From NCBI GenBank assembly GCA_016866975.1, contig VGKP01000008.1, positions 1 to 36,803 on the forward strand: a DNA stretch of 36,803 nucleotides. Reading direction: 5' to 3'. Position numbers and translations under genes: made by a program. Under the pieces are notes generated by a model. That model made no database searches. It was given only the letters and a program-made list of their open reading frames with translations, and was not told where the DNA came from. Every line of letters starts with the position of its first letter. Position 1 is the stretch's first letter. Of this stretch, positions 1-36,803 are shown piece after piece. Origin of the DNA: Candidatus Pacearchaeota archaeon (lineage in GTDB: Archaea > Nanobdellota > Nanobdellia > Pacearchaeales > GW2011-AR1).

Positions 1-126
1 CCCGAGCATCTCCAAAAACGAGCGCCTGCAACAAACCTCGGCTCATCAGGAATCTTAGATTCCTGACTGCCATCGAGGATTCACATCCTCGAGGTTTAAG
101 CCGAGGTGGCGCATCGTTTTTGTGAT
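1..126 (+). repeat. Palindromic AT-flanked element, copy A (5'-truncated by window edge; carries nested 51-nt module at 44-94)
   Basis: 1-43 is identical to 16348-16390. Ends GGTGGCGCATCGTTTTTGTG-AT like copy D. Confidence 0.9.
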
Positions 127-135
127 TTATCTTTT

Positions 136-531
136 TTATGGCGAGTTTTCTTTGTTTCTAGTAGTGAAATAGGACATGAGAAGAAGTGTGCCTACTATTA
201 TTGCTCCAACTGTTAATGTAATCAGTATCGGCGTGTCATGGCTATTTCCAATAGTTATGTATTGCAAATTTAAAGGTAAATATATTGCTGCTGTAATTAG
301 AGCGATGATTAAAGAAAATCTTGAATATTTAGATTGATATTTTTCTTGAAACGCCAATATTGCAAACAGCACACCTATGAAGGCTAAAATTATTTCTACA
401 ATTATCACGAATATCGCGTACATTTGCGATTGATAATATTGAGGTAAAGAAATGATTATTGGAATATTTTTTATGAAAAAAATGATAAGAATGGCTCCGA
501 TAAGAAGATGGAACCAAGACTCTTTTTTCAT
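136..531 (-). CDS. Hypothetical membrane protein (about 4 TM helices), 131 aa
   Basis: ATG-started ORF with four hydrophobic stretches and no recognised motif. Confidence 0.7.
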   Translation of the reverse strand: MKKESWFHLLIGAILIIFFIKNIPIIISLPQYYQSQMYAIFVIIVEIILAFIGVLFAILAFQEKYQSKYSRFSLIIALITAAIYLPLNLQYITIGNSHDTPILITLTVGAIIVGTLLLMSYFTTRNKENSP

Positions 532-587
532 TAGGTTATGAAAAGTTTATTCTTTTTAAAGCTATCTTAAGCTGTCAACACTATGAG

Positions 588-2747
588 CTAAAAGCTAGAG
601 AGAGCAAAAGATGCCAGGAATGAAAGTGCTAGAGTAGCCAATAACGCAGTCACTAAATACAATGAGATGCCGTAGAGAAGGTTCTTAGAAAGATCGTATT
701 TCTCCTTGAGAGGGTCTTTGCCTGCATCTACTGTGACTAATGCAACAGTCAAAATAAACATTATCTCTATTATATAAAGTCCAATCGAAATCTGAAGGAA
801 ATATGGAGGTATCATCTGCTCTACCTGGAAGAGCTTGACTAAGTTAACTGCTAATGAGCCGTATCCTTCAAGAGCGTTTGCGCCTTGTGTGGCCTGAATA
901 ATCTGTAGTTTGTTAAGGATAAATGTAATCATAGTGGAAAGGCCAACCACTATACCTGAGAGCAAAGGTGCGAGGAAAGTCATATTTGATTTCATATCCG
1001 AGACTATTTCTGCAAGAAGGTCTTTGAGCCTCTGATTTATTTTTTGGATATTTTTTACATATTCAGATATAGACATGAGAGACTGGGCAGCAATCTGAAG
1101 TCCTTTCTTTACAGATTCGACCAATATCTTCATTGAAGTAGCAATCAGTGTCGATGGATAATACGTCAAGGCGCCTCTTTTCTTATCGAATATTGCTGAC
1201 TCGAGAGACATCCCCATTTGCTGAATATTCTGGTTTACAGTTGAGAAAAATCTATGAGTCATCTGTCCTTGAGTAGACTCTGCCACCCTGGAGAAAGCTA
1301 TTTCTGCAGGCAAACCATCACCAAGACGATTTCCTAGCTGGAAAAGAGAAGTGGTAAATTCATCCTCAAGGATCTTTGTGTCCTCTCTTGCTTTTATCAA
1401 TCCTTTAGTTTTAGCATTGTATGCTATGGCAAAGAAAAGTGCGATTGAAAGAGGGATAAAGAAGCTGAAAAGGGTACCTGCAAGCCCGAATGGGCCAGAG
1501 AACGAGCTGCCATTTGTTTTAAAATCAAAAAATTTAGTCGTTTCGTCATCATTTATGCCAAGCTCCTTGTATGTATAATCGCTTTGCAGACCTAAAGGTG
1601 CAGTAATAAAAGAAGCTTGGAGAATAAAAGGAATTATGCCAATTAAAAAAAGAGGAAAAGCTATCACAAAAGCTTTTTTCCAAGGCTCTCTTGAAGCAAA
1701 TTGCTTGTATTGAGGATTTAATTCTAACATCGCAGACTCTCCATATCCTCCAGGCCTCTTCAGAAGGACTTCTGATGTCAGATAGAAAACACCAAAGGGA
1801 ATAATGACATTGAAGATGACAAGGACATGATACCATTGGATTATGCCTCCTAGAAGAGTTGAAGCCAGAGGCAACAAGGCAAGAGCTAGAGTTGGCAAGA
1901 TTATTCCTAGCATGTAAATGTTAGTAAGGGGAGAACGTATTTCCCTTGAATACTTGAGCATCTTTTCGTAAACTCCGTCCAGTATGACTGTAAGGGATTT
2001 CTCAAGAATCTGTATCCTTCTCGTTTCTGAAGTCTCGAAAAGAGAGGACTCTATGAGATGAAAAGATTCAATGAACTCTGGTGCATCTACTCTCCAAAAT
2101 TCCAAATAAGCGTCAAGAGACTGTTTTATAGTAGGATATTTGGCTACCTCCACGTTGTAAAAAATCTTCTTGAAATCCAGAGCCAGAGGGCCTTCTAGAT
2201 GGTCTGCAGCAAAAGCTATGGCTCTTTCCAGATTAGATGTATGCTTCATATATACGACGGTGTAAAGAACAGCCGGGACCATTTGAGAAGATGCCTGCAG
2301 TCTCCATGAATTGGCAAGACGCTGAGGCATTGAGTAAGTGTAATAGAAAATAAACATACTTGCAATGAGTCCAAGGAGGACAAATGTGACAAGACCTCCA
2401 GAGAGAGTACTAGGAGAAGTGATGAGATATATCGCTACTGCGATGAAGATTGTTGAGAAAAATACTACTAACATCGATAATAGGGCTAATGTAATAACCT
2501 GACTAGGTGTTACATCTATATGTCCTCTATCCAAAGTTGACTGTATTCTCACCCTGTCCTTTTCAGCAATCTTGAGATGGATAAAATTACCCAGAGATCT
2601 TGCCCATCTTTCATAATTATTTATATCGGGAATCATCTCCTGCTTAAATTTTGAATAGTCTTTTGAGTAACTATCTTTCTTTTGCGAGTCAATCTGCTGC
2701 TCTATTTTCCTGCTATATTTCCTAAGGATGTCCTCTGTTGATACCAT
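588..2747 (-). CDS. Type II secretion system F / TadC-FlaJ-like pilus platform membrane protein
   Basis: About 719 aa polytopic protein with two repeated blocks of soluble helical domain plus TM segments (SNLERAIAFAADHLEGPLALDF; GDGLPAEIAFSRVAES). It neighbours the pilin array. ATG at 2747 preferred over the TTG at 2777. Confidence 0.7.
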   Translation of the reverse strand: MVSTEDILRKYSRKIEQQIDSQKKDSYSKDYSKFKQEMIPDINNYERWARSLGNFIHLKIAEKDRVRIQSTLDRGHIDVTPSQVITLALLSMLVVFFSTIFIAVAIYLITSPSTLSGGLVTFVLLGLIASMFIFYYTYSMPQRLANSWRLQASSQMVPAVLYTVVYMKHTSNLERAIAFAADHLEGPLALDFKKIFYNVEVAKYPTIKQSLDAYLEFWRVDAPEFIESFHLIESSLFETSETRRIQILEKSLTVILDGVYEKMLKYSREIRSPLTNIYMLGIILPTLALALLPLASTLLGGIIQWYHVLVIFNVIIPFGVFYLTSEVLLKRPGGYGESAMLELNPQYKQFASREPWKKAFVIAFPLFLIGIIPFILQASFITAPLGLQSDYTYKELGINDDETTKFFDFKTNGSSFSGPFGLAGTLFSFFIPLSIALFFAIAYNAKTKGLIKAREDTKILEDEFTTSLFQLGNRLGDGLPAEIAFSRVAESTQGQMTHRFFSTVNQNIQQMGMSLESAIFDKKRGALTYYPSTLIATSMKILVESVKKGLQIAAQSLMSISEYVKNIQKINQRLKDLLAEIVSDMKSNMTFLAPLLSGIVVGLSTMITFILNKLQIIQATQGANALEGYGSLAVNLVKLFQVEQMIPPYFLQISIGLYIIEIMFILTVALVTVDAGKDPLKEKYDLSKNLLYGISLYLVTALLATLALSFLASFALSSF

Positions 2748-2994
2748 CTTTTTATACTGAGAAAACTGAATTTGCACAGACTATTTCTTTAATAGAGATA
2801 CGCAAATTCTGTTTTCGAGGTGTTCAAGAAACCTTGTTTTCTTGACAACGTGGAGAGGTAAAGCTATATTATAAATCTATAGAATACTTTGAAAAACTCT
2901 TTATAAGAAGATATTTGACTATCCTTTTGTTTATCCGATAATAGTATAAGACCTAAATATCTCAATTTTTAAGGCCTTATACTTAAGGAGAGTT

Positions 2995-6341: not shown

Positions 6342-6388
6342 CGGATTATTGAAGTTAGATATATAAACATCTGTTTTATTGTTAGTAT

Positions 6389-9300
6389 ATGAAAAGAGCA
6401 GGTGTCGCATTTGTTATGTCAAGGAACTTGACTAAAACTCCAGCTTTTAAGCTGGAGTTGTTCCTTGAGCATCCAAAAAAAGAGCGCCTGCATCAAACTG
6501 CGGCTTTTAAGCCGCAGTGGCGCATCGTTTTTTTGATTATTTCTGCTATCGCCGTATTCTTTCTGACTTTGATATCTGTACAAGGAATCTCTGAAGGGAC
6601 TGCTTTTCCTGATGGTAAATATTGCAAAGACAGTGACGGCGGAATATTCTCTTTCCAGAGAGGAGTAGTAGATTCAATAAATTTTTTAGGAATCCCAAAA
6701 AAGTATGAAGACAGATGTCTAGATATGAAAGGGAAAAGTTTTGTAAGAGAGTATTATTGCGATAATGAGAGAGGAAAATGGCAGGAGATGCCTTGCCATA
6801 GTGGATGTGACTTGAGGAAATGCATGCCTTCAAAAGTAAGCATAAAACTAGAAATGACTAAGGAACATTATGCTGCAGGAGAACTGATCGAATTGGCAGG
6901 GTACAAAAAGCTTGATTCCAAATCTGGTGCAGGCGCGGAAAAAATATCGCCTCTTACAGGAAGAGCCGTTGGTATTGGTAGTGAGGGGAGTGGTGGAGGA
7001 AGTGGAAGCGGCTCAGGATCTGAAAGATATTGTGCTTCAACACAATTGTTTGCCAAATTTTCTCTTGAAAATGCCAGACAAAAAAGGGAACTGGCTTCCC
7101 TGCAGAGGGACCTAAATTCATTGGCAAAGGAATCTTGCTCATCAAACAGTGAGTTTTTTGAAGAAGAAGTGGTGCCTTTGATAGAGATGAGAAAAGAGCT
7201 TCTTATAGAACTTATCCGCAGGTCTCCAGTTGCAGCACTTGAGACAAAACCTCTCCCTTCTCATTTTACAGAGAGGCTTAGTGATGAAGAGAGAATAAGT
7301 CTATTGGAAGACAGGAGTCCAAAAGAGGGTTATTTTGATATTGTCCATGAAGAAGATGGCAATGGGCTTGGCAAGAAGTTTCATTATTATTTACGTACTC
7401 AAGGAGATAATCAGAAGAAATATGAAGCTTTTCTTGCTCATGGTGAGCTACAAGAGCATCCCGGCTCTAAAGTCATTGTGCAGGGCCTTGCCTTAGATAA
7501 TGTTCTGGCATTGGATGATTCTCCTGCAAAGACGCAAGTCATTGATAAACCAATCACTCCAGCTCAGGAAAACCTTGGCAAGCAACGCGTCCTTGTCATA
7601 GTATCCAAAATAGAAGGCGTTCCTGCTCCTACGAGTGTTGAGGAAGCAAGGAAAGTTGTATTTGAAGAGGTGCAGGGATTTTATGATGATACATCATATG
7701 GAAAAACAGAACTTATTGGAAAAGTCATTGGACCATATGACTTAAAGTATTCAGAAGATAATAAGTGCAATGAAATAAAACTTCTTCTAAAAGAGGCGTT
7801 TAACCGTAAAGATATTGAATCGTTTGATTATGACCGACTTATCCTTGCTGTGCCTTGTACTCCTGGATGTAATTGTGCTGGAGGATCTGGAACTGTTGGG
7901 AAGATGATGAATTATGAACTTCCTAATGGAAAATATGCAAATTTTAGTGCTTCTTGGGACTTTGTTTTCTCTAAATTTGTTGTATCCCATGAACTGGGGC
8001 ATAATTTTGGAGCCCATCACGCAAACAAATATGAGTGCAGGAAGGATGCGGCAGATTATAGTGGGCTTGAAGTATATGGTCCTGCAAAATCATGTGAGAA
8101 TATGGAGTATGGAGATTCATACGATGTAATGGGTGGCGGTGGCTCATTCAATGCGCCCCATCGCTCCGAGGCAGGATGGCTTTCACCAGAGAATACTAAA
8201 ACTATTGAAGAAGGAACTTTCGTTCTGCGGCCACTTAATAAGAAAGTCTCTCCCGGGACACTCCAGCAGATCCGCATACCTGTCAATTTTGAGTCTGGAT
8301 TTTACTTTCCACCCGAAAATATCTTTTATACTGTCGAATTGAAGTTGCCTTCCAAGGAGGATAAACTCTCTGCGCCTACTGTTTTTCTCCATCTTGCAAA
8401 AGGCTCTGATGATGGAAGTTTTACGTTCTTACAGACCACTCTCTTTGAGCCAAGTGCAACTTCCGAAACTATAATTAATCCAGATGGGACACAAATCAAA
8501 GAGATACAGACCCATAATTCTTTGAAGATACTGAGTCCTTACATTGATCCTTGGAATGGAGTGCAAATAAGCCTTGTTAGTATAAGCGAAGAAGGGGCGG
8601 AGATAAAGGTTGAGAAGTTACAGAAATCTGGCATTAATTTTCAGAAACCTCTTGTTCATTATAATTTTGATGAGCAGACACAACCAAAGGTTCTGAATTT
8701 GGATGCTGATGGATATAGTACTGGACGCTTTAAAGACTCCTCTGAGAATGGTATTTATGCAAAAATTAAGGACAAGGTTCTTCGTATTGGAGGAGGGGTA
8801 TACGTTATGCAAGACTCAGCTTCCCAAAATTATGATAAAATACCTTCGCATATCTCTCTGAGTAATTATCCGCTTTCCTTTATCCAGACACAGAATAAGT
8901 TCACTGTTTCACTTTGGGTACATCCACAATCTTTTTCTTCATTATCTACATCTGTTTATTCAGGCAAGGGAATATCGATTCATATAATGGAAAACGGGGG
9001 AGTGTGGGCCAGTTCTCTTTTCAAGAATGTCCTTTATAGTTCGCCTTCTTACCATTCTGTTTTCTTAGCAGAAGTTGAGTATCGTGAACCTCTTAAGCTC
9101 ATGGAATGGCATCATATTGTCGTTCGTTATGATGGGTCTGAAATGTCTCTTTTTGTTGATGGAGTACTGCGTGATAAAAAATCTTCTCAAAAAATATACC
9201 CTATAGATTCTTCAAGCGAGTCTAAAGAGCATCCTCTTACAAAAGTTCATTTTGGAAGGTATGGGGACCATATCCTAGGTCCCTATTATTCTGAAGGGAT

Positions 9301-9742
9301 ATTCAATGGAGTATTAGATGAATTTAGTATATATGCGCGTGCGCTTGAGGACAAGGAAGTTGCTTCTTTGTATTCCGATTTCTCTCGTCAATCTGTAGAC
9401 TTCAGTCTTGCTCACAGATCCTCACGTTCCTTTATTAAGAATGATTTGGATGAGAAGATATTTGGGTCATTGCGAATCTATTTGGAGAATTATGATCCTA
9501 TCACAAAAACCTGGAGCCCATACAGTCTTGCTCACAGATCCTATTTTGAGAAAAGTCACAAGATTATCCTTCCTCCTCGTTCATCTACATCTATACACTA
9601 TATTTTCAATTCTAAGGGATATGTAGTATGGGGACCTGGAAATTACAGGGTGTATGCATCATTTGAAGAAGATCAGGTCTCTGATAAACGAAAAGGAAAA
9701 ATAATTACGGAGAATTATGTTCAGTTTGAAGTCAAATCTTAA
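6389..9742 (+). CDS. Secreted zinc metallopeptidase (M6/M11-like metzincin) with N-terminal 6-Cys module and C-terminal LamG domain; 40-aa repeat-derived insert in the signal peptide
   Basis: HELGHNFGAHH (HExxH at 7988-8002) and Met-turn-like EYGDSYDVMG. LamG motifs FTVSLWV, WHHIVVRYDG, LFVDG, GVLDEFSIY. Confidence 0.75.
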   Translation: MKRAGVAFVMSRNLTKTPAFKLELFLEHPKKERLHQTAAFKPQWRIVFLIISAIAVFFLTLISVQGISEGTAFPDGKYCKDSDGGIFSFQRGVVDSINFLGIPKKYEDRCLDMKGKSFVREYYCDNERGKWQEMPCHSGCDLRKCMPSKVSIKLEMTKEHYAAGELIELAGYKKLDSKSGAGAEKISPLTGRAVGIGSEGSGGGSGSGSGSERYCASTQLFAKFSLENARQKRELASLQRDLNSLAKESCSSNSEFFEEEVVPLIEMRKELLIELIRRSPVAALETKPLPSHFTERLSDEERISLLEDRSPKEGYFDIVHEEDGNGLGKKFHYYLRTQGDNQKKYEAFLAHGELQEHPGSKVIVQGLALDNVLALDDSPAKTQVIDKPITPAQENLGKQRVLVIVSKIEGVPAPTSVEEARKVVFEEVQGFYDDTSYGKTELIGKVIGPYDLKYSEDNKCNEIKLLLKEAFNRKDIESFDYDRLILAVPCTPGCNCAGGSGTVGKMMNYELPNGKYANFSASWDFVFSKFVVSHELGHNFGAHHANKYECRKDAADYSGLEVYGPAKSCENMEYGDSYDVMGGGGSFNAPHRSEAGWLSPENTKTIEEGTFVLRPLNKKVSPGTLQQIRIPVNFESGFYFPPENIFYTVELKLPSKEDKLSAPTVFLHLAKGSDDGSFTFLQTTLFEPSATSETIINPDGTQIKEIQTHNSLKILSPYIDPWNGVQISLVSISEEGAEIKVEKLQKSGINFQKPLVHYNFDEQTQPKVLNLDADGYSTGRFKDSSENGIYAKIKDKVLRIGGGVYVMQDSASQNYDKIPSHISLSNYPLSFIQTQNKFTVSLWVHPQSFSSLSTSVYSGKGISIHIMENGGVWASSLFKNVLYSSPSYHSVFLAEVEYREPLKLMEWHHIVVRYDGSEMSLFVDGVLRDKKSSQKIYPIDSSSESKEHPLTKVHFGRYGDHILGPYYSEGIFNGVLDEFSIYARALEDKEVASLYSDFSRQSVDFSLAHRSSRSFIKNDLDEKIFGSLRIYLENYDPITKTWSPYSLAHRSYFEKSHKIILPPRSSTSIHYIFNSKGYVVWGPGNYRVYASFEEDQVSDKRKGKIITENYVQFEVKS
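6416..6537 (+). repeat. Palindromic AT-flanked element, copy B (120 nt + AT), in-frame within CDS
   Basis: ATGTCAAGGAAC...CGTTTTTTTG-AT. First 57 nt are identical to copies C, E and H. Confidence 0.95.
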
Positions 9743-11000: not shown

Positions 11001-11051
11001 CCTCAAGAACTTACGTTCTTGATGGCCGTCAAGGATTTAGAATCCTTGAGG
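11001..11051 (-). repeat. 51-nt twin-hairpin module, stand-alone copy
   Basis: TCAAGAAC-ttac-GTTCTTGA, tggccg, TCAAGGATT-tag-AATCCTTGA. Its reverse complement has the same 2+21+6+20+2 layout as 44-94. Confidence 0.8.
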
Positions 11052-11096
11052 CTACGTTACCCTCATTAATGTTCTTGGAAGGTAAACGGAGGGTAA

Positions 11097-11702
11097 ATGG
11101 ATAAAAAAGGGCAATTGAAAGAAAATACTCTTGGGGTGATAATAGCAGTTATAGGGATAGTGATAGTATTCGGAGGAGCAGGATTTTTACTTTATAATTA
11201 TTTTACTCTGTCTTCAGAGCAGAGGCAGGAAGAAGCAAAGGGTTTGCTTGATGTCCTAGGAGCAAAGTTAGAAAAATTAGAAGAGGGAAAGAATAGCAGT
11301 TTTCTTGTGAAAGGGCCATGCGAGGGAAATAGTCTAGGAGATCTTTGTTATTGGTATCTGACAGGATGGAGTGTTGGAGAACAAGACAGGCCTCAGAGAT
11401 GTTTTTTCAATAGTTGCATATGCGTGTGCAAAGCTGAGAATAAGGAATCTTCGATAAACAAGAGAGAACTTGTTGAGGCGTGCCAGAACGGCGAGACTGG
11501 ATATTGCAAGGCAGTAAGCACAGAAAAAATAGAAGTATCCAGCGTACAAAAAGTAGATGGAGATATCATTGCATATAAAGAGGGTTTTGATGTTAGAGGG
11601 CCTAAAAAGGATGCAGTGAAACCATTTATATCTTTCAGGACAAATCTTATCGAGTTGATGTTGCAGAGAAATCCTGGGGGTCTGAATATTAGCCGAGTAT
11701 GA
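11097..11702 (+). CDS. Pilin-like protein, 201 aa
   Basis: GGAGG SD-like motif upstream. MDKKG|QLKENTLGVIIAVIGIVIVF. Confidence 0.75.
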   Translation: MDKKGQLKENTLGVIIAVIGIVIVFGGAGFLLYNYFTLSSEQRQEEAKGLLDVLGAKLEKLEEGKNSSFLVKGPCEGNSLGDLCYWYLTGWSVGEQDRPQRCFFNSCICVCKAENKESSINKRELVEACQNGETGYCKAVSTEKIEVSSVQKVDGDIIAYKEGFDVRGPKKDAVKPFISFRTNLIELMLQRNPGGLNISRV

Positions 11703-12112
11703 CAAAGATAAATGGAAAGAGAGGGGCGAGTGATATCCTGCATTCTACAATAGCATTTATTTTCATCCTTCTTTTATTTACATTTGGGATGTGGTATTAT
11801 ATCTATCAACAGAAGAGTGGAGCATCTGTCTGGGAAGATTATTATGCAAAACAATTAACTATAGTCATGAATTCTGCGAGACCGGGAGATATCATAGTAT
11901 TAGATGTCCATAAAGCAACAGAAATAGCACAGAAAGCAAGCGTGTCTTTTGAGTCTATATTCTTAATCTCAGACCAAGAGACTTGTGTAAGGCTTTCACA
12001 AGGAAGAAAGACATGTTATTCTTTTTTCAACAGAGTCGACGCGGAAATAGAGTTAAGGACAGGTGTGCCTGGAAATGTGATTGAAATAAAGGTATTGGAG
12101 GAAAAAGAATGA
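11699..12112 (+). CDS. Pilin-like protein, 137 aa
   Basis: GKRG|ASDILHSTIAFIFILLLF. ATGA overlap with the previous gene. Confidence 0.7.
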   Translation: MTKINGKRGASDILHSTIAFIFILLLFTFGMWYYIYQQKSGASVWEDYYAKQLTIVMNSARPGDIIVLDVHKATEIAQKASVSFESIFLISDQETCVRLSQGRKTCYSFFNRVDAEIELRTGVPGNVIEIKVLEEKE

Positions 12113-12558
12113 ACAGAAAAGCAGCTGCAGGCGACCAAACAATTAGCTTTGCATGGATATTCATGCTGTTCTTCATAGCAATCATGCTTGTCGGAGGAGT
12201 CGTATTATTTTTTGGCTCTGACATAGATATCAGAGGGATTGAGAGTGCCCAGATGTCTAATAAGGTAAAAGATTGTATCATCTCTGGCAAGATAGACATG
12301 AAAAATAAATTAGAATTAGAAGAAATAGAGAAGAAATGCGGAATAGATGAAAAAGTATTAACTGATTATTTTTTATTGTCCATAAGCAAGGAAGAAGAAC
12401 AGTTGATAAAAATAAAAGACGCGACCTCTTGTGACTTCAAGGGAACTGAAGACAATCCATATTATCCAAGGTGTAGAGATGATAGTTTTATATTTAATGG
12501 AGAAAGTTATTCGATAAAAGTTGGTAGCCATCAATTTTCAAGGAGAGGATTAGGATGA
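12109..12558 (+). CDS. Pilin-like protein, 149 aa
   Basis: MNRKA|AAGDQTISFAWIFMLFFIAIML. ATGA overlap. Confidence 0.65.
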   Translation: MNRKAAAGDQTISFAWIFMLFFIAIMLVGGVVLFFGSDIDIRGIESAQMSNKVKDCIISGKIDMKNKLELEEIEKKCGIDEKVLTDYFLLSISKEEEQLIKIKDATSCDFKGTEDNPYYPRCRDDSFIFNGESYSIKVGSHQFSRRGLG

Positions 12559-13145
12559 ATAAAAAAGGACAGACCGAGATAAGCAAGACGATGACATTCT
12601 TTCCTGTATTCATACTACTTTTTGTGATACTTCTATTATTTTTTGCGTTGACTTTCGCAATAAGCGCAGTCAAGAGAGTGCAAACCCCTTTCTTGATGGC
12701 CTCTGCAGAAAAAGGAAATTCTATATTATTTGAAACAATCACTGTCGATGGAAAAAAGGTATTGTTCATTGAAGGCCTGTTCATCTATCATGGGAAGAAG
12801 ACAGGCCTGGTAAGTGATCCTTCATTTGAGTGGAATTTTTTACATGCAGCGCAGGCCATGTTTGAGAAAAATGCAAAAAAGGACATTACTGGAATAAAAG
12901 GCTATTCCAAGATATGTCTTATGGCTGGCATAGATGAGGGAAAGAAAAGCAGAGGATTGGCTTTTGTGATGCATGAAGATGGAAGAGTCGTAACAGGAGA
13001 CAATCAAAGAGGAGATATACTTATGTCTAAGGCAGTCGTATATGATTTTCCATCAAAAAGGCTTGAGAGCATATCATTGATAGTAGATGGAGAGAGGAAG
13101 ATATTGTCTTATTATTATGGAAAATGCTATAGGAGTGCAGAATGA
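12555..13145 (+). CDS. Pilin-like protein, 196 aa
   Basis: MNKKG|QTEISKTMTFFPVFILLF. ATGA overlap. Confidence 0.7.
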   Translation: MNKKGQTEISKTMTFFPVFILLFVILLLFFALTFAISAVKRVQTPFLMASAEKGNSILFETITVDGKKVLFIEGLFIYHGKKTGLVSDPSFEWNFLHAAQAMFEKNAKKDITGIKGYSKICLMAGIDEGKKSRGLAFVMHEDGRVVTGDNQRGDILMSKAVVYDFPSKRLESISLIVDGERKILSYYYGKCYRSAE

Positions 13146-13591
13146 GGAGAATAGGAAAGAGAGGAGATGTTCCCACAATATTGCTTGTCCCTATAACTCT
13201 AATTCTAATAATCGCCGCGCTGTTTTATTTCAGGAGCTATAATGGAGAGATACAGAACAAATCATCAGAAGTCGCGGAGATAATAGAAGAAGTCACTCTG
13301 AGCCAAGCTACTTTGGAGAAAGTATCAGAACTTATAGGTGAGGAAGCTTTAGCTTCAGAGAGCGATGACATGAAGAAGAAGTTTCAGGAGATTGCGGCTG
13401 GTCATGATCTAAGGTGGAATGGAGTGGGAAACTTCTTCGCCAAGATAAGGACAGGAGATTTTGTATTTGAGAAAAAAGAAAAGTCTTATATATTGGAGAT
13501 AAAAGGGCTTTTTGTGCAGTCAGAAAGAGGGGCCAACAAGATGAAGAGAGGATTTGATATAATAAAGAAATTTAAAGAGAGAGATGGATAA
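13142..13591 (+). CDS. Pilin-like protein, 149 aa
   Basis: GKRG|DVPTILLVPITLILIIAALF. ATGA overlap. Confidence 0.7.
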   Translation: MRRIGKRGDVPTILLVPITLILIIAALFYFRSYNGEIQNKSSEVAEIIEEVTLSQATLEKVSELIGEEALASESDDMKKKFQEIAAGHDLRWNGVGNFFAKIRTGDFVFEKKEKSYILEIKGLFVQSERGANKMKRGFDIIKKFKERDG

Positions 13592-13622
13592 GATTTATAA
13601 AGAACTTTGTCGTGGGAGAGGG

Positions 13623-14117
13623 ATGAATAGAAGAGGGCAGGAGCTGTCTGTTGGCACGCTTATATTGATTGTATTGGGAATAGTCCTATTAGTATTGCTC
13701 ATTTTAGGATTCTCTCTTGGATGGAGCAATCTTTGGGAAAAGATAAACATATTCAGCAGTACAACAAGCCTTGAAAGTATTGCCCAGAAATGCAGCCTTG
13801 CAGTGACATCAGGCAGCTTGCTTTCATATTGCGAGAGTTTTACTCAGATAACTTTTGAGGGAAAAAAGCAGTATGTAAATTGCGAGTATCCAAAACTCAA
13901 TCTAGATAAGACTCTTACTTGCTCTAGTGAACCAAGAAAGAAGAACAAGTGCATAGAATTGATAAAGGCAAAGTTTGCTGACCAATTCAAATCTGACCAG
14001 GAAGAAGCATTTTCCGATAAATGCACCAGTACTACTGACTTGATAGTCAATGGAGATTCATGCTCGAGTTATTGCAAAGATGTAAAATTTGCGGAGATAA
14101 AGCAGAAAGCAGCTTGA
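13623..14117 (+). CDS. Pilin-like protein (likely start 13623)
   Basis: MNRRG|QELSVGTLILIVLGIVLLVLLILGF with a Cys-rich C-terminal domain. Purine-rich SD-like motif before 13623. Confidence 0.8.
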   Translation: MNRRGQELSVGTLILIVLGIVLLVLLILGFSLGWSNLWEKINIFSSTTSLESIAQKCSLAVTSGSLLSYCESFTQITFEGKKQYVNCEYPKLNLDKTLTCSSEPRKKNKCIELIKAKFADQFKSDQEEAFSDKCTSTTDLIVNGDSCSSYCKDVKFAEIKQKAA

Positions 14118-14154
14118 TAAAAGATTTTAAATAACATAAAGTTCTGATTTTCTC

Positions 14155-14460
14155 ATGAATAAAAGAGGAATGGAGTTGGCTATCTCTACTTTGGTACTGA
14201 TAGTCATAGGACTTATGCTGCTTATTGCATTAATTTATGCCGCAACTATAGGATTTGATAAATTCAGAGGGACATCTAAACCTTTTATAGATACTGCAAA
14301 TGCAGGGGCGGTAAAACAGGCCTGCTCAATAGCATGCAAGCAAGAAGATAGGCTCACGTTTTGTTGCAAGAACTATACATTGGAAAAAGAAACAGTCAAA
14401 TGTGATGATAATAGACTTGAAGTTGGATGTTCTCTAAGCTGCAATGGATTTTCCTGCTAG
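14155..14460 (+). CDS. Pilin-like protein, 101 aa, Cys-rich
   Basis: MNKRG|MELAISTLVLIVIGLMLLIALI. Confidence 0.8.
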   Translation: MNKRGMELAISTLVLIVIGLMLLIALIYAATIGFDKFRGTSKPFIDTANAGAVKQACSIACKQEDRLTFCCKNYTLEKETVKCDDNRLEVGCSLSCNGFSC

Positions 14461-15348: not shown

Positions 15349-15470
15349 ATGTCAAGGAACTTGACTAAAACTCCAGCTTTTAAGCTGGAGTTGTTCCTTG
15401 AGCATCCAAAGCACGAGTGCCTGCAACAAACCACACTCTTCAGAGTGTGGTGGCACATCGTGCTTTTGAT
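15349..15470 (+). repeat. Palindromic AT-flanked element, copy C (120 nt + AT), intergenic
   Basis: 119/120 identical to the reverse complement of 20767-20886. Confidence 0.95.
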
Positions 15471-15972: not shown

Positions 15973-16098
15973 ATGGATTATGGAATGCCTGAAAGAAGAA
16001 AGAACAAGAATGATAAAAGAGCTAAAGCAAGATTTAATCGATTCAAAATAGGTGGAGCTCTGCGCAGCGCAGAACGTCAGAAAAAGCCTCAGAGTTGA
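15973..16098 (+). CDS. Candidate small basic protein, 41 aa (missing from ORF track)
   Basis: MDYGMPERRKNKNDKRAKARFNRFKIGGALRSAERQKKPQS*. TTATAAA at 15945-15951 lies about 22 nt upstream. Confidence 0.45.
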   Translation: MDYGMPERRKNKNDKRAKARFNRFKIGGALRSAERQKKPQS

Positions 16099-16304
16099 GA
16101 GTTATAGCTTCTTGGATGATTCAATCTATCTATCCCTATATAAATTGCTAAGACTCCGCCAAAGATTCCGATAATGGCAATCCACCATTTTATTAAGAAG
16201 AACTGGGTAAATAACCCGATTATAAGGATGGTCGTACTAGTTACTATGGCCAGAATTCCGAGCAAGATATAGGAGTATGCACAGAACTTGACTCTTTTTG
16301 TCAT
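16089..16304 (-). CDS. Small 2-TM membrane protein, 71 aa (ATG at 16304)
   Basis: MTKRVKFCAYSYILLG... The ORF-track extension to 16328 is repeat-derived. Confidence 0.6.
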   Translation of the reverse strand: MTKRVKFCAYSYILLGILAIVTSTTILIIGLFTQFFLIKWWIAIIGIFGGVLAIYIGIDRLNHPRSYNSQL

Positions 16305-16422
16305 GTCGGGAACCGATGAAAACCACACCTTTCAAGGTGTGGTGGTTCCCGAGCATCTCCAAAAACGAGCGCCTGCAACAAACCTCGGCTTTTAAGCCGA
16401 GGTGGCGCATCGTTTTTGTGAT
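16303..16422 (+). repeat. Palindromic AT-flanked element, copy D (118 nt + AT), variant arm 1
   Basis: ATG-TC-GGGAACC...ACCACACCT-ttca-AGGTGTGGT-GGTTCCC-GA-G-CAT, then arm 2 as in copies A and H. Confidence 0.92.
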
Positions 16423-18871: not shown

Positions 18872-18936
18872 GATGATTGAAAGAGAGACGGGTTTAAAGA
18901 ATTAATGGGGAGAGGTTTATAAACACTCGTAGAAAT

Positions 18937-18976
18937 CCTCTACCTTTAGGTAGAGGTTAAAACCCGAAGGGTTTTA
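18937..18976. repeat. Two adjacent perfect hairpins, intergenic
   Basis: CCTCTACCT-tt-AGGTAGAGG (18937-18956) and TAAAACCC-gaa-GGGTTTTA (18958-18976). Confidence 0.7.
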
Positions 18977-19117
18977 TGACTTATAACTTTTTTATGAATA
19001 TTGGGAGGGTAAATCTCTAAGTCAGAAAAAAGGAAAGAGATTTTGGAATGGCATATAGTATTATTTTGGGAACTGCTTTTTAGTTTGAGGCAAAACTTCT
19101 TACGAAAGGTATAAACT

Positions 19118-20619: not shown

Positions 20620-21891
20620 TTAGCTTATAAATACCTCCTCAAACCTCTCTAGTCTATCAGGTTTATTTTCTATCACAACAATCTCTCTGACAAGAGAGAT
20701 TGTAGATTTCTCTTTGAGATAAGCACAGCATTCTCCGATAGTCATAGACTTTCCAGACCGATACATCAAAAGCACGATGTGCCACCACACTCTGAAGAAT
20801 GTGGTTTGTTGCAGGCACTCGTGCTTTGGATGCTCAAGGAACAACTCCAGCTTAAAAGCTGGAGTTTTAGTCAAGTTCCTTGACATAAAAAGGCTCAGCA
20901 CTGCATAGGCCATGGTAGCAAGGATTGAATGTCGAACAATCCCTTCTCTTCTTGCGAAGAAAACCGTAGCAAAGCCAAGGTTTTGTTTTATGTCTCGATG
21001 GTACGTTTCTATTTTCCATCGCAGTTTATATGCGCTTATTATCTCAGCGGCATCATTGTCAATGTTAGTTGAAATAAGATGAGCTTTGCCAACAAGCTCA
21101 TCATCTTTGTTTGTCTGTTCTGATATGATCATCTTTACCGACGGTAGATTGTTCAGTATAACAATTGAAGACCACGTCTGATAAGTGTTGCCTTTAACAA
21201 CTGTTTCGTTCAATTTCTGAGAGTGGATTCTCTCAGAAATAAAAGATAAGGATTGCCATCTCCTTTTCTTGTGCAACTTTATCTTCCTGTTTGTCATTAT
21301 AGAACAAACAACTCTTGTCTTCATTTTGAGGCATTTTTTAATAAGTTCATGGTCTGAATACCAAGAGTCAAATAAAATCGTGTGAATCTTGATTTTTAAC
21401 GACGATAATCTATCAATCAAAGATTGAGCCATCTCAATCTTCGAGTCAGTATTTTTTGAATATAGCTCTGGGAAAATTGGTAATTGTAATAATGGAGTCC
21501 AAAGCAGAGCAGTAAAGAACTGATGTCCTTTAATTTGCTTTCCAGAATTATGGTCATGATGATACTGTGCTTCTTGCACGGTATCTCCATTCCTTTCAAC
21601 TAATGTATCGTCTATAATCAGATAAACTGGAGTATTCTTGAAGAGATACCTTGCTTTCTCCAAGTATCTCTTTGTAAGCATTTCTTGTTCACATTTTGCT
21701 TCTGTGATGGCATAATTCAGTTCAGATTGATGCCTTATTTCAGAGGAAGCCTCTGAAATTTTCTTTACAGTCTTATCCGCTAGTGAGATCAGGCCATTGA
21801 CATACTGAACGATGCATCTAAAGCTGCCTTTCGTAAACGCCTTCCTAGCAAACGCTAATATACTCTTTACCTCTTTTATAATCGGAAGCAT
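20620..21891 (-). CDS. IS701-like DDE transposase with 40-aa in-frame insert
   Basis: LIIDDT, ILFDSWY and YKLRWKIETYHRDIKQNLG (DDE with Y-x2-R-x3-E-x6-K signature). Confidence 0.9.
   Translation of the reverse strand: MLPIIKEVKSILAFARKAFTKGSFRCIVQYVNGLISLADKTVKKISEASSEIRHQSELNYAITEAKCEQEMLTKRYLEKARYLFKNTPVYLIIDDTLVERNGDTVQEAQYHHDHNSGKQIKGHQFFTALLWTPLLQLPIFPELYSKNTDSKIEMAQSLIDRLSSLKIKIHTILFDSWYSDHELIKKCLKMKTRVVCSIMTNRKIKLHKKRRWQSLSFISERIHSQKLNETVVKGNTYQTWSSIVILNNLPSVKMIISEQTNKDDELVGKAHLISTNIDNDAAEIISAYKLRWKIETYHRDIKQNLGFATVFFARREGIVRHSILATMAYAVLSLFMSRNLTKTPAFKLELFLEHPKHECLQQTTFFRVWWHIVLLMYRSGKSMTIGECCAYLKEKSTISLVREIVVIENKPDRLERFEEVFIS
20765..20886 (-). repeat. Palindromic AT-flanked element, copy E (120 nt + AT), in-frame in transposase
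   Basis: Encodes MSRNLTKTPAFKLELFLEHPKHECLQQTTFFRVWWHIVLL. Confidence 0.95.
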
Positions 21892-25031: not shown

Positions 25032-27524
25032 ATGGCGAAGACCGACGAAGAAAAGAGTTCTAAGAAAGAAAAAGGGGAAGCAAAAGAAGAGGAAGCTAAA
25101 CTGACCGACATACCAGGTATTGGACCCGGCATCGCGGCGAAACTTGAAGCTGCCGGAGTATATGATTTGATGGGTCTAGCAGTGATGTCGCCTCCAGCAT
25201 TATCCGAGCTAGCAGGAATTGGAGAAGCAGTTGCTCGAAAGGCAATTCAATCTGCACGCAGTTTAATGAAACTTGGATTTACTGATGGAGTGGAGTTTGC
25301 AAAGAAGAGAGATGACATTTTCACTATAGGCACGGGGAGCAAAAACCTTGATGCACTTCTGGGAGGAAGAGGAATAGAAACTAAAGCATTGACCGAGGCG
25401 TATGGCGCATTTGGCAGCGGAAAGAGCCAATTGGGCTTTACGCTTGCGGTACGTGCACAATTGCCGAAAGAACATGGCGGTGCAAATGGGAAGGCTGTGT
25501 TTATAGACACTGAAGGCACTTTCAGACCTGAAAGAATAAGGCAGATTGCGGAAGGGATGGGGGCAAACCCTGAGAAAGTACTCAAGAATATACTTGTTGC
25601 ACGAGCTTTCAATTCTGACCATCAAATCCTTTTAATGGATAGAGTCTCGGAGCTTATCAAGGAAGGAGAGCCAATAAGGCTTATTATAATAGACTCTCTT
25701 ACTGCACATTTCAGGGCGGAGTTTGCGGGAAGAGGGCAGTTAGCTGACAGACAGCAGAAGCTCAATCGCTATCTCCATAATTTGATGAAAATGGCTGAAC
25801 AGCACAATCTTGCAGTATATCTGACAAATCAAGTCATGGCGAATCCTGGAATGATGTTTGGCGATCCTACGACACCAGTTGGGGGCAATATCATCGGACA
25901 TGCCTGCCTTACTGAAGACAGCCTAATACAATTAGCGGATGGGAGCATATTGGAGATAAATAAGATGGGCCCTGGAAGAGTCATGTCTTCTTCATTTAGG
26001 GAAATGAGCTTAAATCCCGCCATTTCAGGTCAGGTCTTTATCAATAAAGATGTTAAAAGCCTTTATACTATAATTACCAATGGGCAAATAACTTGCTCTC
26101 CATTGCATAGATTTTTCAGCATCAATAATTTTGAAGTAGTTGAAAAAGAAGCAAAAGACCTTATTGAAGGTGATTTTATTGCTCAGGCATCTGAGATTAA
26201 TATTCTTGGGGAAGATATCAGGGTCCCCGAGTTCAAGGTTAGGAGAATAGGTAAATTGAACGAGAAAAGTTCTAATGTGCTCAAGGAAAATATGCGGCAA
26301 GACCGGATAAGCAGGAAGGAAATATGCAAAAACATAGGGATAACTCCCCGTCAATTAAGGAGAGTATTAAACCAAGAATGGCCTACCTCAATGGAAGTAC
26401 TGGATGGTTTGCAGTCATACGGAGGAAATCAAGTCCTTGAGATTGTTCCTGTAACAACTTATAAGCACAGAGACCTGAAGATGCCAGAATTTGTTACTCC
26501 CGGTCTTGCTCAGATATTCGGATATTTCATTGGGGATGGGAACCTGGAGAAAAGAGGGATAAGATTTAGAGATGCACGATACGAGGTCTTGGAGCATTAC
26601 AGTAAATTGTTTTCTAAGATTTTTAATGTAGCAGGCAGCATCACAAAATTAAGCGGAAAGAACTGCTATAGCTTAAACATTAACTCAAGAGAAATAAGCG
26701 ATCTATTCTCCTTGATGCTTCCCAAAATATACGAGTATATAGGAAAATCAAAGAAAGAAAGCGTTATTGCCTTCATCAGAGGGTTTGTAGATGCAGAAGG
26801 ACATGCAAATAAAAAAAGAGCATACATCTCTGTATCCCAAAAGAAATCAATGGTATTGAAATACCTGCAGCTTTTCTTATTAAGAGCAGGGATAAGAAGC
26901 ACCGTCAAATTTGACATTGGAAGAAAAAAAATTGGCGTATTGAGGATAATAGATAAGGATATATTAGGATATATGCAGATAGGATTTACTGCTTCTGACA
27001 AGCAAAAGATTTTTTTGGATAAAGTCAAGGAACTTGAAAGGAAATATACTTACGAGATGACTCCTGTAAAAAGAGACGAGTTGTCTGCTTTAATGAGGGC
27101 GTGTGGTTTGAAGCCTTTCTCCGTTATCAAATACAGATCTGAAAATTACCTCTGGGTCAGCAGGAAAGAGCTAGAAATTGCATTCAAGGCATTGATGAAT
27201 TCAACTATAACGGATAGACAGATAAAACAGAAGATTGAGTTTATAGGCAAAATCCTGCAGGGGGAAATAAGGTTTGAGAAGATAAGGAAGATAAAAATAG
27301 AAGACAATAGTGGTAAAGTGTTATATGATTTCTCTGTTCCAAATATGGAAAATTACGTTGCAAATGGATTCATTGTTCACAATTCTACATACAGGATGTA
27401 CCTTAGGAGAGGAAAACAAGGAAGCAGAGTCGCTAAACTGATTGACTCACCCAACTTGCCAGATAATGAGACAGTGTTTTTTGTCACAAAAGCAGGCGTA
27501 AAGGACGAAGAAGAAAAAGAGTAG
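25032..27524 (+). CDS. radA: DNA repair/recombination protein RadA precursor containing an intein (mature about 337 aa)
   Basis: N-terminal HhH (IPGIGPGIAAKL), Walker A GAFGSGKSQ, Walker B IIIDS, LTNQVMANP. ATG at 25032. Confidence 0.95.
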   Translation: MAKTDEEKSSKKEKGEAKEEEAKLTDIPGIGPGIAAKLEAAGVYDLMGLAVMSPPALSELAGIGEAVARKAIQSARSLMKLGFTDGVEFAKKRDDIFTIGTGSKNLDALLGGRGIETKALTEAYGAFGSGKSQLGFTLAVRAQLPKEHGGANGKAVFIDTEGTFRPERIRQIAEGMGANPEKVLKNILVARAFNSDHQILLMDRVSELIKEGEPIRLIIIDSLTAHFRAEFAGRGQLADRQQKLNRYLHNLMKMAEQHNLAVYLTNQVMANPGMMFGDPTTPVGGNIIGHACLTEDSLIQLADGSILEINKMGPGRVMSSSFREMSLNPAISGQVFINKDVKSLYTIITNGQITCSPLHRFFSINNFEVVEKEAKDLIEGDFIAQASEINILGEDIRVPEFKVRRIGKLNEKSSNVLKENMRQDRISRKEICKNIGITPRQLRRVLNQEWPTSMEVLDGLQSYGGNQVLEIVPVTTYKHRDLKMPEFVTPGLAQIFGYFIGDGNLEKRGIRFRDARYEVLEHYSKLFSKIFNVAGSITKLSGKNCYSLNINSREISDLFSLMLPKIYEYIGKSKKESVIAFIRGFVDAEGHANKKRAYISVSQKKSMVLKYLQLFLLRAGIRSTVKFDIGRKKIGVLRIIDKDILGYMQIGFTASDKQKIFLDKVKELERKYTYEMTPVKRDELSALMRACGLKPFSVIKYRSENYLWVSRKELEIAFKALMNSTITDRQIKQKIEFIGKILQGEIRFEKIRKIKIEDNSGKVLYDFSVPNMENYVANGFIVHNSTYRMYLRRGKQGSRVAKLIDSPNLPDNETVFFVTKAGVKDEEEKE
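25905..27383 (+). mobile_element. Intein, 493 aa, with LAGLIDADG homing endonuclease and HTH-like insert
   Basis: GHA|CLTEDS...VANGFIVHN|STY. Endonuclease blocks FGYFIGDG and FIRGFVDAEG. Confidence 0.93.
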
Positions 27525-30716: not shown

Positions 30717-30788
30717 GCTCCCATAGTTTATCGGATAGAATGCAACCTTGCGGAGGTTGAGGGCGAGGTTCAATTCCTCGTGGGAGCG
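30717..30788 (+). tRNA. tRNA-Arg (anticodon GCG), intron-less, CCA not encoded
   Basis: Acceptor GCTCCCA/TGGGAGC; anticodon arm CAACC-TTGCGGA-GGTTG; T arm CGAGG-TTCAATT-CCTCG. Confidence 0.93.
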
Positions 30789-30836
30789 TATGAATTGAAA
30801 GTGCTCACAGAACTTCGTTCCGTGGCAACCTTCGTG

Positions 30837-30946
30837 AGGTCAAGGAACTTGACGCAAACCACACCTCATCGGGAATCTAAGATTCCTGACTGTTATCGAG
30901 GATTTAAATCCTTGAGGTTTAGGGCGTGATGGCGCATCGTGCTTTG
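30837..30946 (+). repeat. Palindromic element copy F: about 60-nt short form carrying the 51-nt module (30867-30917)
   Basis: GTCAAGGAACTTGAC-GCAAACCACACCT[51 nt]TTTAGGGCGTGATGGCGCATCGTGCTTTG. Confidence 0.85.
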
Positions 30947-30963
30947 AACGCATTCACTCAGGT

Positions 30964-30986
30964 GTTCAATTCCTCGTGGGAACGTA
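30964..30986 (+). repeat. Duplicate of the tRNA-Arg 3' end (att-like direct repeat)
   Basis: GTTCAATTCCTCGTGGGAaCGTA matches 30768-30790 at 22/23. Confidence 0.88.
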
Positions 30987-32251: not shown

Positions 32252-32300
32252 ATGTAACATACCTTGCCCTTTAGGGCATGGTACGCATCGTTTTTTTGAT
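32252..32300 (+). repeat. Degenerate short palindromic element, copy G
   Basis: AT-GTAACA-TACCTTGCCCT-tt-AGGGCATGGTA-CGCATCGTTTTTTTG-AT. Right end is identical to copy B. Confidence 0.7.
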
Positions 32301-32340
32301 CCATAAAAACATTTTAATAAGTAGTATCTGATTGAAATAA

Positions 32341-33309: not shown

Positions 33310-33365
33310 AACTTTTGGAAGAAAATAGACATTAAATCATTATATGTGCTGAACAATCTATTTAT

Positions 33366-33500
33366 CTATTTTGTCTTTGGAGCGTCTGGGAGCCGGATAT
33401 ACTTGTAATGTGCTTTTTCTGAAAGGCCATTGCAAGATGGACATTTCTGTTTAAGAGTATAGACTTTCTTATCGTGATTATCGCATTTTCTAAGTTTCAT
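33366..33500 (-). CDS. nop10: Nop10-like RNA-modification protein, 44 aa (missing from ORF track)
   Basis: MKLRKC...VYTLKQKCPSC...KAHYKY. Lies downstream of aIF-2alpha, as in the conserved archaeal cluster. Confidence 0.8.
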   Translation of the reverse strand: MKLRKCDNHDKKVYTLKQKCPSCNGLSEKAHYKYIRLPDAPKTK

Positions 33501-33754
33501 TTTAAAATTAAGAGGTCTGAAAGATCTGGAAATACGCTACGATAGTTTTTATTTGAAGGCATTATCCTCTGATCTGTAAGGTGCACAGCCCTTGCGCGCA
33601 AGACTCGTGTAACTTCATCAGCCATAGAATCTTCCACTTCATAAATCCTATAGAATTCTTTAGGAGTGCTCTTCAGACCTTTGTCTTCCCTGCCAGGCTT
33701 CCTAGTGAATACTGCCCAACCTGTTCTATAAATAATGCCTATCTCAACACTCAT
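33497..33754 (-). CDS. Hypothetical protein, 85 aa
   Basis: ATGA overlaps with both neighbours. Confidence 0.6.
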   Translation of the reverse strand: MSVEIGIIYRTGWAVFTRKPGREDKGLKSTPKEFYRIYEVEDSMADEVTRVLRARAVHLTDQRIMPSNKNYRSVFPDLSDLLILK

Positions 33755-34449: not shown

Positions 34450-34610
34450 AATATCTCCTTAATGAAGGCGCGCATCTTTCCTTTTCCTCCACTAGTTTTC
34501 ATAAGAAGATAGTTACATTTAACGCATTTTATCTTAGATGACGCCTTGCCGAACACAACCTGTTTCTGCTTGCATCTTGGGCATCCTACCCTAAGGAACT
34601 TGCTTTCCAT
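34440..34610 (-). CDS. rps27e: 30S ribosomal protein S27e, 56 aa (missing from ORF track)
   Basis: SKFLRVGCPRCKQKQVVFGKASSKIKCVKC...GGKG. Confidence 0.93.
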   Translation of the reverse strand: MESKFLRVGCPRCKQKQVVFGKASSKIKCVKCNYLLMKTSGGKGKMRAFIKEILWN

Positions 34611-34642
34611 CAAAAAGCATATCTTTGGTGTCTTTTAAACTT

Positions 34643-35965: not shown

Positions 35966-35984
35966 AAGACCTCTTTTTAATCTC

Positions 35985-36308
35985 TTATTCAGACGGTTTA
36001 ACTAACCAAAGATTCTTTGTAAGAGATTTCTTAGCAGTATAGTCATGCTTGTGCTTCTTCTGATGTTCTTCCAGATTCTTTATCTTATTCTGGACTCTGG
36101 TCTGATCTGAATTGTCTTGTATCTTTGCATCGGAGAGTATATGAGTTATCTTTTTTCCCAATAGCTTTGCCCTAGGAATGCCGTGCTGGTCACGTAGAAT
36201 GATCCCTATTTTTGAAGGAGTATTTCCTTGTTTGTAAAGGTCAACAACAAGCTTCTCCATCTCTGCAGGTTTCATCTTGACCCATTCTGGTTTTGATTCT
36301 GTCATCAT
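35985..36308 (-). CDS. rps15: 30S ribosomal protein uS15 (S13e-type), short form
   Basis: KPEWVKM...TPSKIGIILRDQHGIP...KKITHIL. Confidence 0.9.
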   Translation of the reverse strand: MMTESKPEWVKMKPAEMEKLVVDLYKQGNTPSKIGIILRDQHGIPRAKLLGKKITHILSDAKIQDNSDQTRVQNKIKNLEEHQKKHKHDYTAKKSLTKNLWLVKPSE

Positions 36309-36344
36309 TCAACCTAGAAAGGGTCTCTTAAAAAGGTTGCGGTG

Positions 36345-36415
36345 TAAGGGAACCAAGGTTCTCTCAGGGATTCATAATCCCTGATGACCGTCAAGAATCA
36401 GCAGATTCTTGAGGC
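36345..36415 (-). repeat. Twin-hairpin module, stand-alone copy (about 53-nt core, TAAGGGAACC flank)
   Basis: TCAGGGATT-cat-AATCCCTGA, tgaccg, TCAAGAATC-agca-GATTCTTGA, GG. Shares TAAGGGAACC with 10993-11002. Confidence 0.75.
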
Positions 36416-36449
36416 CTTATGGATCAACCTTCCTTTCAACTAACAGTTG

Positions 36450-36707
36450 CTAACCTAATTTTAGTGTCTGAATTATATCTTCTGCATTTACGGGCTTAAA
36501 GAGATAAGAATGATAGTCTCTTCCTCTAGTCAGGCCTTGAGTTATTAGATCTTCCTCACTTTGACTGCTTAGCGCGACTACCCTGGCATTTTTGGAATGT
36601 GCATCTGAGAGTATCTTTTCAAGTAATGGCCTATTATTGTAATCATCAGAGATGAAAAAGTAAGGCTCTATAATCAAAGAGCGATAATCATATTTTGAGA
36701 TTAATTT
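36450..36707 (-). pseudogene. C-terminal part of a CheY-like receiver-domain gene, apparently cut by repeat copy H
   Basis: Frame is open from the element edge: KLISKYDYRSLIIEP...VVALSS...YLFKPVNAEDIIQTL. In-frame TGA at 36713-36711 lies inside the element. Confidence 0.45.
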
Positions 36708-36803
36708 ATGTCAAGGAACTTGACTAAAACTCCAGCTTTTAAGCTGGAGTTGTTCCTTGAGCATCCAAAAAACGAGCGCCTGCAACAAACCTCGGCTTTT
36801 AAG
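36708..36803 (+). repeat. Palindromic AT-flanked element, copy H (3'-truncated by window edge)
   Basis: Arm 1 is identical to B, C and E. Arm 2 matches A and D. Confidence 0.93.

Follow-up and report, generated by a model that had tools for sequence, protein, structure and literature searches.

A gene-less 118-120-nt palindromic repeat of a Pacearchaeota genome is very probably a non-autonomous IS200/IS605-family element

The DNA analysed here (the window, 36,803 nt) is contig VGKP01000008.1 of the Candidatus Pacearchaeota archaeon assembly GCA_016866975.1, and carries a dispersed family of 120-nt palindromic repeats (the element). The window is contig C8 of a 31-contig, 806-kb genome that is 89% complete; relatives of this genome are labelled Pacearchaeota, Nanoarchaeota or Woesearchaeota, and the window DNA was present in lake-water metagenomes of 2018. 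Genomes, contigs and loci are designated by the letters G, C and L, followed by a number. A first-pass annotation, made from the sequence alone, had reported eight copies in the window: family sequence was found at all eight places, but only four copies are complete. Two others are truncated at the contig ends, and the remaining two are older derivatives with a single hairpin. The copies, their parts and related features are listed in Table 1, where copy coordinates are given without the target AT.

Table 1. Element copies, predicted parts and related features of the window (a and b denote arm subtypes)
Feature	Position	Strand	Description
Contig-start-cut element	1..126	+	a2/b2, with nested 51-nt insert
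Nested family B insert	44..94	+	51 nt, two hairpins (CA...GG), in hairpin 2 loop
Peptidase gene	6389-9742		1117-aa M12-like peptidase/LamG; host gene of the copy at 6418
Target tetramer	6414..6417	+	TTAT; predicted left cleavage site; host sequence outside the element
Full element	6418..6537	+	120 nt, a1/b1; in frame after TTAT in signal peptide
Left guide	6434..6437	+	AAAA, foot of hairpin 1; TTAT predicted by the IS608 rule
Inner hairpin 1	6438..6457	+	TT loop; predicted TnpA-binding palindrome
Central segment	6460..6490	+	complementary to left and right linkers, i.e. to the predicted right-end/left-end circle junction
Right guide	6494..6497	+	CAAA, foot of hairpin 2; terminal TGAT predicted
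Inner hairpin 2	6498..6517	+	TT loop, then GTGGCG as at the IS-A left end
Stand-alone family B insert	11005..11055	-	two hairpins; overlooked by the first-pass annotation
Full element	15351..15470	+	120 nt, a1/b3; intergenic, after CTAT
Full element	16305..16422	+	118 nt, a2/b2; after TCAT, between AI-2E stop and ATG of a minus-strand 71-aa open reading frame (ORF)
Related single-hairpin element	18924..18980	+	IS-A-like guide AAAT, one TTTA hairpin, GAA mini-hairpin, TGAC end; overlooked by the first-pass annotation
DDE transposase gene	20620-21891		host gene of the copy at 20765
Full element	20765..20884	-	120 nt, a1/b3; in frame after TTAT
Older core-deleted derivative	30839..30946	+	single hairpin, guide CAAA, after TGAG, no GAT end
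Family B insert	30867-30917		51 nt, inside the derivative at 30839
Degenerate derivative	32254..32300	+	single hairpin, TGAT end
Contig-end-cut element	36710..36803	+	a1/b2 mosaic, after TTAT

The element was compared by BLAST with the whole genome and with related genomes, as the annotation had suggested. About 76 loci were found in the genome, 62 of them with an intact left end, and together they make up about 1% of this reduced, symbiont-type genome. Copies of 120 nt (n = 25) and 118 nt (n = 19) form the length classes, and most copies have an identical or near-identical twin; the cut copy at 1-126 is identical to the 3' portion of a 169-nt copy on C24. The same pair of ends marks related elements in 12 of 16 congeners and in several other genera. 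Twelve contig ends of the genome fall inside a copy, which bears out the earlier view that the window starts and ends in copies as an assembly broken at a repeat would. These broken ends, in an assembly made without long reads, could also be taken for the mark of an assembly or read-chimera artefact, as could position 6481, which is A in the window and C in all lake-run contigs compared (possibly a consensus error within the repeat). The probability of an artefact is, however, negligible: contigs with unique flanks from four public lake runs enter the element, with the depth of a single copy in the main run, so that the junctions are not chimeras; some flank-element junctions recur in the three runs other than the main one; and the ends are fixed in many independent genomes.

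Read along the plus strand, a full element opens with a 16-nt left linker, which starts with GTC, and closes with a 20-nt right linker, whose last letters are TGAT. Between the linkers lie two hairpins with TT loops, separated by a central segment and preceded by the tetramers AAAA (hairpin 1) and CAAA (hairpin 2). Terminal inverted repeats are absent (the ends read GTCAAG... and ...TTTTGAT), and the centre matches, in reverse complement, the sequence formed when the right linker is joined to the left. In an alignment of 23 members the two tetramers and the ends were near-invariant and the stems variable: 97% of the alignment cells were paired, and both sides had changed in 24 of 47 pairs, across all four helices. 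This number of compensatory pairs was compared with shuffled alignments (about 15) and with slid partners (7 at most). Three full types from the window were folded, with z-scores of -9 to -13, far past chance, and in the distant members L024, L028 and L029 pairing is kept in stems of unrelated sequence. The arm subtypes (a1, a2; b1, b2, b3) recombine and the hairpin loops are inverted at times. The covariation is no proof of selection: palindromes are homogenised by template switching as well, which, to judge from the loop inversions, has probably acted here.

The first-pass annotation had placed the insertions at AT dinucleotides; the site is instead a TTAT tetramer, which is not duplicated. 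TTAT stands upstream of 45 of 60 copies, against a background of 9% of genomic NNAT sites; T was found at -4 in 58 of 60 copies, with additional T preference at -7, -6, +2 and +3. This flank was compared with the target rule of the insertion sequence IS608. In the IS608 structures, guide position 4 pairs with target position -1. A guide tetramer 5' of each IS608 hairpin pairs with the cleavage site (guide/site pairs AAAG/TTAC and GAAT/TCAA, with guide positions 1 and 2 pairing with target positions -3 and -4), and insertion takes place 3' of a tetramer that is retained in the flank (PMC5934647). Under this rule AAAA gives TTAT and CAAA gives TGAT, i.e. the observed target and the observed element end; the rule also fits, by eye, both ends of both autonomous insertion sequences of the genome. 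The first AT is therefore assigned to the host and the last AT to the element: the flanking ATs, formally ambiguous, are explained by the predicted guides as target TTAT plus end TGAT, and not as a duplication.

Natural variation in the left guide was then set against variation in the target. G at target position -3 (TGAT or TGAG) was found in 8 of 11 copies with a CAAA left guide versus 6 of 57 with AAAA (p = 5e-5; p = 2e-4 after dropping one copy placed in tandem behind another element's end). As far as sequences can tell, this guide-target covariation is the decisive natural test of guide-directed targeting. An AT on both sides of the copies and one AT at the empty site would also be expected of an element with an AT core or an AT duplication, mobilised by a DDE enzyme or a recombinase (a serine recombinase of IS607 type, IS110, or a classical miniature inverted-repeat transposable element (MITE)) with the centre as a splint for the ends; the complementarity of centre and junction would suit it, as would a variant in a G009 tnpA gene with the inverted ends ATGTCAAG...CTTGACAT. 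Such a mechanism is considered very unlikely, because the family has no terminal inverted repeats, the target preference is tied to the guide and is asymmetric, favouring T on one strand, the copies lie on the same strand as tnpA elements, and no resolvase, IS110 or TnpB family match was found in the 89%-complete genome. A classical (DDE) MITE was rejected on the missing inverted repeats and target duplication. Two tyrosine integrases are present in the genome.

The precision of insertion was assessed at the DDE transposase gene. Its homologues typically have 380-391 aa, and the closest has 383 aa compared with 423 aa in the window; the homologues show a single 40-residue gap exactly at the element, where homologous DNA reads TTAT|G, for a net insert of 120 nt (40 aa). 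The prediction that deletion of a copy leaves one AT and restores the gene was upheld: the transposase returns to the 383 aa of its homologues, and the signal peptide of the peptidase is restored. Empty orthologous sites, expected by the same annotation, are thus provided by the transposase homologues, but not by any allele in the contigs of the four lake runs. A second copy of the transposase was not found in the genome, and a metagenome scan with the AI-2E protein returned distant relatives only, hence no same-species empty sites. In the aligned parts of the syntenic G008 contig the copies of the window are missing, and that contig has copies at other positions; with an identity of 65-73%, no empty site could be placed to the base.

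Copies lie within long reconstructed frames in 13 of 47 cases, compared with 70% of TTAT sites. The frame is kept open by about five of the 47, two of them in signal peptides, and several others introduce stops and disrupt genes. This is selfish spread with purging, and not a coding-repeat family. REP/BIME/REPIN sequences with RAYT, the Rickettsia RPE and the coding palindromes of Methanocaldococcus jannaschii are short dispersed palindromes, some of them inserted in frame. The analogy to the coding palindromes, drawn in the first-pass annotation, is weak, and an RPE-like coding repeat was rejected because so few copies keep the frame open. REP/BIME/REPIN were rejected as the GTAG/CGTC tags are absent; in addition, the Y1 matches of the genome are IS-type with hairpin ends, with IS200 TnpA as the top match in the PDB. 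Compared with REP/RPE-type palindromes, the hairpins are in direct, IS-like order, the ends are fixed and in-frame copies are a minority. A domesticated palindromic repeat with a regulatory or protein-extending role might account for the in-frame copies and for a secondary structure conserved across genera. It is nevertheless a most improbable reading: copies are near-identical, their positions differ from those in syntenic G008, coding sites are depleted and genes are broken, and an Rfam search of the window returned tRNA-Arg only, with no match for the element. Among copies with a length that is a multiple of three, 11 of 22 lie in long frames, against 2 of 25 of the others, and most of the former still add stops; this excess may reflect subfamily age.

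Orientation was scored across the genome. Neighbouring copies tend strongly to the same strand (34 of 40; p = 4e-6), and the strand with G>C carries 50 of 61 copies, the skew being a proxy for replication direction in a genome that is not closed. On contigs with a tnpA element end, 30 of 34 copies are on its strand (27 of 27 outside C1). A strand bias has been reported for IS200/IS605 elements and attributed to use of the lagging-strand template (PMC3971601). The shared bias confirms the plus strand as the active one.

Two tnpA-only IS200 elements, IS-A and IS-B, are what was found, in the 89%-complete genome, of the enzymes named by the annotation (TnpA, TnpB, serine recombinase); there are three Y1 matches. 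IS-A has its gene at C10:161-574, left ends at C2 and C21 and hairpins with TTTA loops; its tnpA encodes a candidate helper of 137 aa, with HLH motif and Tyr intact and IS200 TnpA as top PDB matches. IS-B has at least four copies, TCTTG-loop hairpins and the target TTTAT, and its tnpA is partial, split across contig ends. Hairpin 1 of the copy at 6418 is identical in sequence to the hairpin at the left end of a relative's IS-A-type tnpA element (L279), a 20-mer is common to the IS-A right end and a family member from a relative, and 12-18-mers are shared with the family by IS-A-type ends in 11 of 21 loci of the order. The IS-A left end on C21 is a chimera in which the hairpin leads directly into the right linker of the element, and which would have arisen by insertion and then deletion between similar hairpins. 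As hairpin sequences are shared with IS-A-type and not with IS-B-type ends, IS-A is the likeliest helper on sequence grounds.

From these data the element is, with high probability, a non-autonomous member of the IS200/IS605 family, i.e. a palindrome-associated transposable element (PATE): two IS200-type end hairpins and their linkers in 118-120 nt, too short for a transposase gene, as the annotation had noted, with IS-A as the likeliest source of TnpA. Its proposal of a recently active non-autonomous DPANN element, served by an HUH/Y1 enzyme outside the window, is supported by the two IS200 tnpA elements, the target, the guides, the strand bias and the guide-target covariation. Mobilisation would proceed by analogy with IS608 and ISDra2. 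The plus strand would be single-stranded on the lagging-strand template, where a TnpA dimer would bind the two TT-loop hairpins; guide AAAA would pair with the target TTAT and guide CAAA with the terminal TGAT. TnpA would then cut 3' of TTAT and of TGAT, seal the donor site and free a single-stranded DNA circle joined as TGAT|GTC, and the circle would enter T-rich DNA on the 3' side of a further TTAT, with no duplication. Peculiar to this family, the centre would pair with both linkers, holding the ends together, and the circle would be a closed dumbbell. Variants would arise later by deletion between the hairpins, arm swapping, loop inversion and nested inserts of 50-51 nt.

Several points weigh against this assignment. 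The sample of CAAA guides is small (n = 11) and comes from about six related genomes. A circle junction was not seen, and no joint skipping a copy (an empty allele) appeared in the contigs of the four lake runs, in which rare variants are dropped. A rigid outer stem would put the terminal TGAT 14-16 nt off its guide, so that bending or melting would be needed. A search of about 35 tnpA loci and 113 pattern matches gave no autonomous element with precisely these termini, and Y1 tnpA was not found in the incomplete assemblies of the element-rich G005, G008, G011 and G016. Finally IS-B, and not IS-A, shares the target TTTAT, the commonest 5-mer target of the element, and is the more numerous of the two. 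The same class of element might accordingly depend on the TnpA of IS-B, or on another HUH enzyme that is missing from an assembly 89% complete. We consider another helper of this kind unlikely: an IS200/IS605 target is set by the DNA guide and not by the protein (PMC5934647), no 12-mer is shared with IS-B-type ends whereas IS-A-type hairpins do share such words, and the chimeric end on C21 joins the element to IS-A. Pattern matches in viral contigs, which had no hairpin, were put down to chance; an intron-like reading was set aside as no bulge-helix-bulge was seen by eye at the element ends.

By all features tested, the element fits the definition of PATEs in Haloquadratum walsbyi well (HqIRS44, HqIRS46, HqIRS54, HqIRS56 and HqIRS71; PMC3119063). 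Like these, it has no gene, no terminal inverted repeats and no target duplication, has near-terminal palindromes resembling IS605-type ends and a targeting sequence of 4-5 nt on the 5' side, and occurs as homogeneous high-copy types, with core deletion to single-hairpin forms and smaller repeats nested in palindromes (PMC3119063). It differs in its DPANN host, in its size (118-120 nt and coreless, versus 370-590 nt, or 52 nt after core deletion), in arms that pair to the very ends (at most a short left-end outer stem in Haloquadratum; Table S9, PMC3119063) and in nested inserts of 50-51 nt with two hairpins (a 110-nt SMR-A with inverted ends in Haloquadratum; PMC3119063). With IS608 and ISDra2 it shares subterminal TT-loop hairpins whose feet have a guide tetramer on the 5' side, and insertion 3' of a tetramer retained in the flank (PMC5934647). 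Further shared traits are a strand bias linked to replication and the involvement in secondary structure of the sequence that lies 3' of the hairpin. Unlike IS608 and ISDra2, it has no tnpA or tnpB, and its right linker of about 20 nt is paired with the centre.

Other gene-less passengers are longer, and were likened to the element by description and not by sequence. ISC1733 belongs to the IS200/IS605 family. A 320-bp element of Sulfolobus islandicus, SMN1, depends on the ISC1733 transposase and its mobilisation has been observed (PMC3718332); PATE-like elements of Geobacillus stearothermophilus are moved in trans, often keeping an omega-RNA (PMC10055086), for which the present element is too short, in a genome where no TnpB was found. 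Short gene-less passengers have also been reported in Ktedonobacter (PMC4810608). The first-pass annotation had not recognised the family as described: no description of the family or of a dumbbell intermediate was found in a literature search that left most subscription papers outside, but the class itself has been described as PATEs (PMC3119063). What is unusual is a shape that pairs with itself throughout, together with a naturally occurring guide change that is matched by a change of target.

The predicted circle would fold as a closed dumbbell, i.e. two hairpins joined by a long stem, each hairpin with a predicted 7-8-nt bulge containing the guide region. In IS608, structure 3' of the left hairpin restricts extended target pairing (PMC5934647); limiting such pairing, one known reason for structure at this place, may by analogy be a role of the stems, which may also hold the element ends together. 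A stronger version, which we put forward as a tentative and rather doubtful idea, is that folding into a dumbbell has a function and is under selection. As an internal splint, the centre would then pre-pair the ends, giving a closed, viroid-like 120-nt single-stranded intermediate able to transpose from very short single-stranded gaps or to persist extrachromosomally, and the 50-nt two-hairpin inserts would be smaller members or parasites of one modular system across Pacearchaeota.

Nature offers here a notably clean case of a minimal IS200/IS605 substrate, with a length of 120 nt, a candidate helper encoded by its own genome and natural guide variants that shift their targets in agreement with prediction; guide-directed targeting and the role of linker structure are directly testable with oligonucleotides. 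For the host, genes are knocked out or extended and assemblies are fragmented; the strand bias could help to tell how contigs of uncultured DPANN genomes lie with respect to replication.

Smaller and variant forms were recorded alongside the full copies. Family B (two-hairpin inserts of 50-51 nt, CA...GG) is found at about 20 loci genome-wide, in the hairpin loops or centre of copies and also stand-alone, and folds as a dumbbell like the full element; the G008 site syntenic with the stand-alone insert of the window is occupied by a full element with a B insert. The right end of the related single-hairpin element is common to six loci. Window position 27024 was rejected as a family member, as it matches the left-end pattern and has no hairpin. 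Variants of about 90 nt that lack inner hairpin 2 and keep the outer stem and CAAA guide were found in several genomes (L090, L139, L154, L162, L169), and are possibly mobile with one binding hairpin. L087:719-890 (G009) has a left-type end at both termini, inverted, with nested hairpins, and interrupts an IS-A-type tnpA gene. Two-hairpin inserts of about 28-36 nt occur in right-end hairpins of IS-A-type elements of many Pacearchaeota, at the same place just before CCTTTAGG (L260, L264, L266, L268, L269, L273, L277, L081, L085).

Other observations concern the neighbourhood. A repeat of the 3' part of tRNA-Arg(GCG) lies about 190 nt downstream (window 30717-30985), with the single-hairpin copy between; this partial repeat is absent from syntenic G008 and resembles what an element integrated at the tRNA would leave behind. 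The DDE transposase is single-copy and ISC1217/DDE_5-like, with hundreds of homologues, some of them in Nanoarchaeota; at L076/L077 a homologue adjoins a reverse transcriptase gene. With the element removed, the 71-aa, membrane-like ORF (16089-16304) lies directly downstream of the AI-2E gene, and it is absent from syntenic G008. Other short palindromic or tandem repeats were found at contig breaks (G000 C5 end, C12 start, C15 end) and between genes (C2:56478, C9:2258, C13:7764), and belong to a broader collection of small hairpin repeats in this genome. Window 11097-14460 holds a run of short tandem ORFs on the plus strand.

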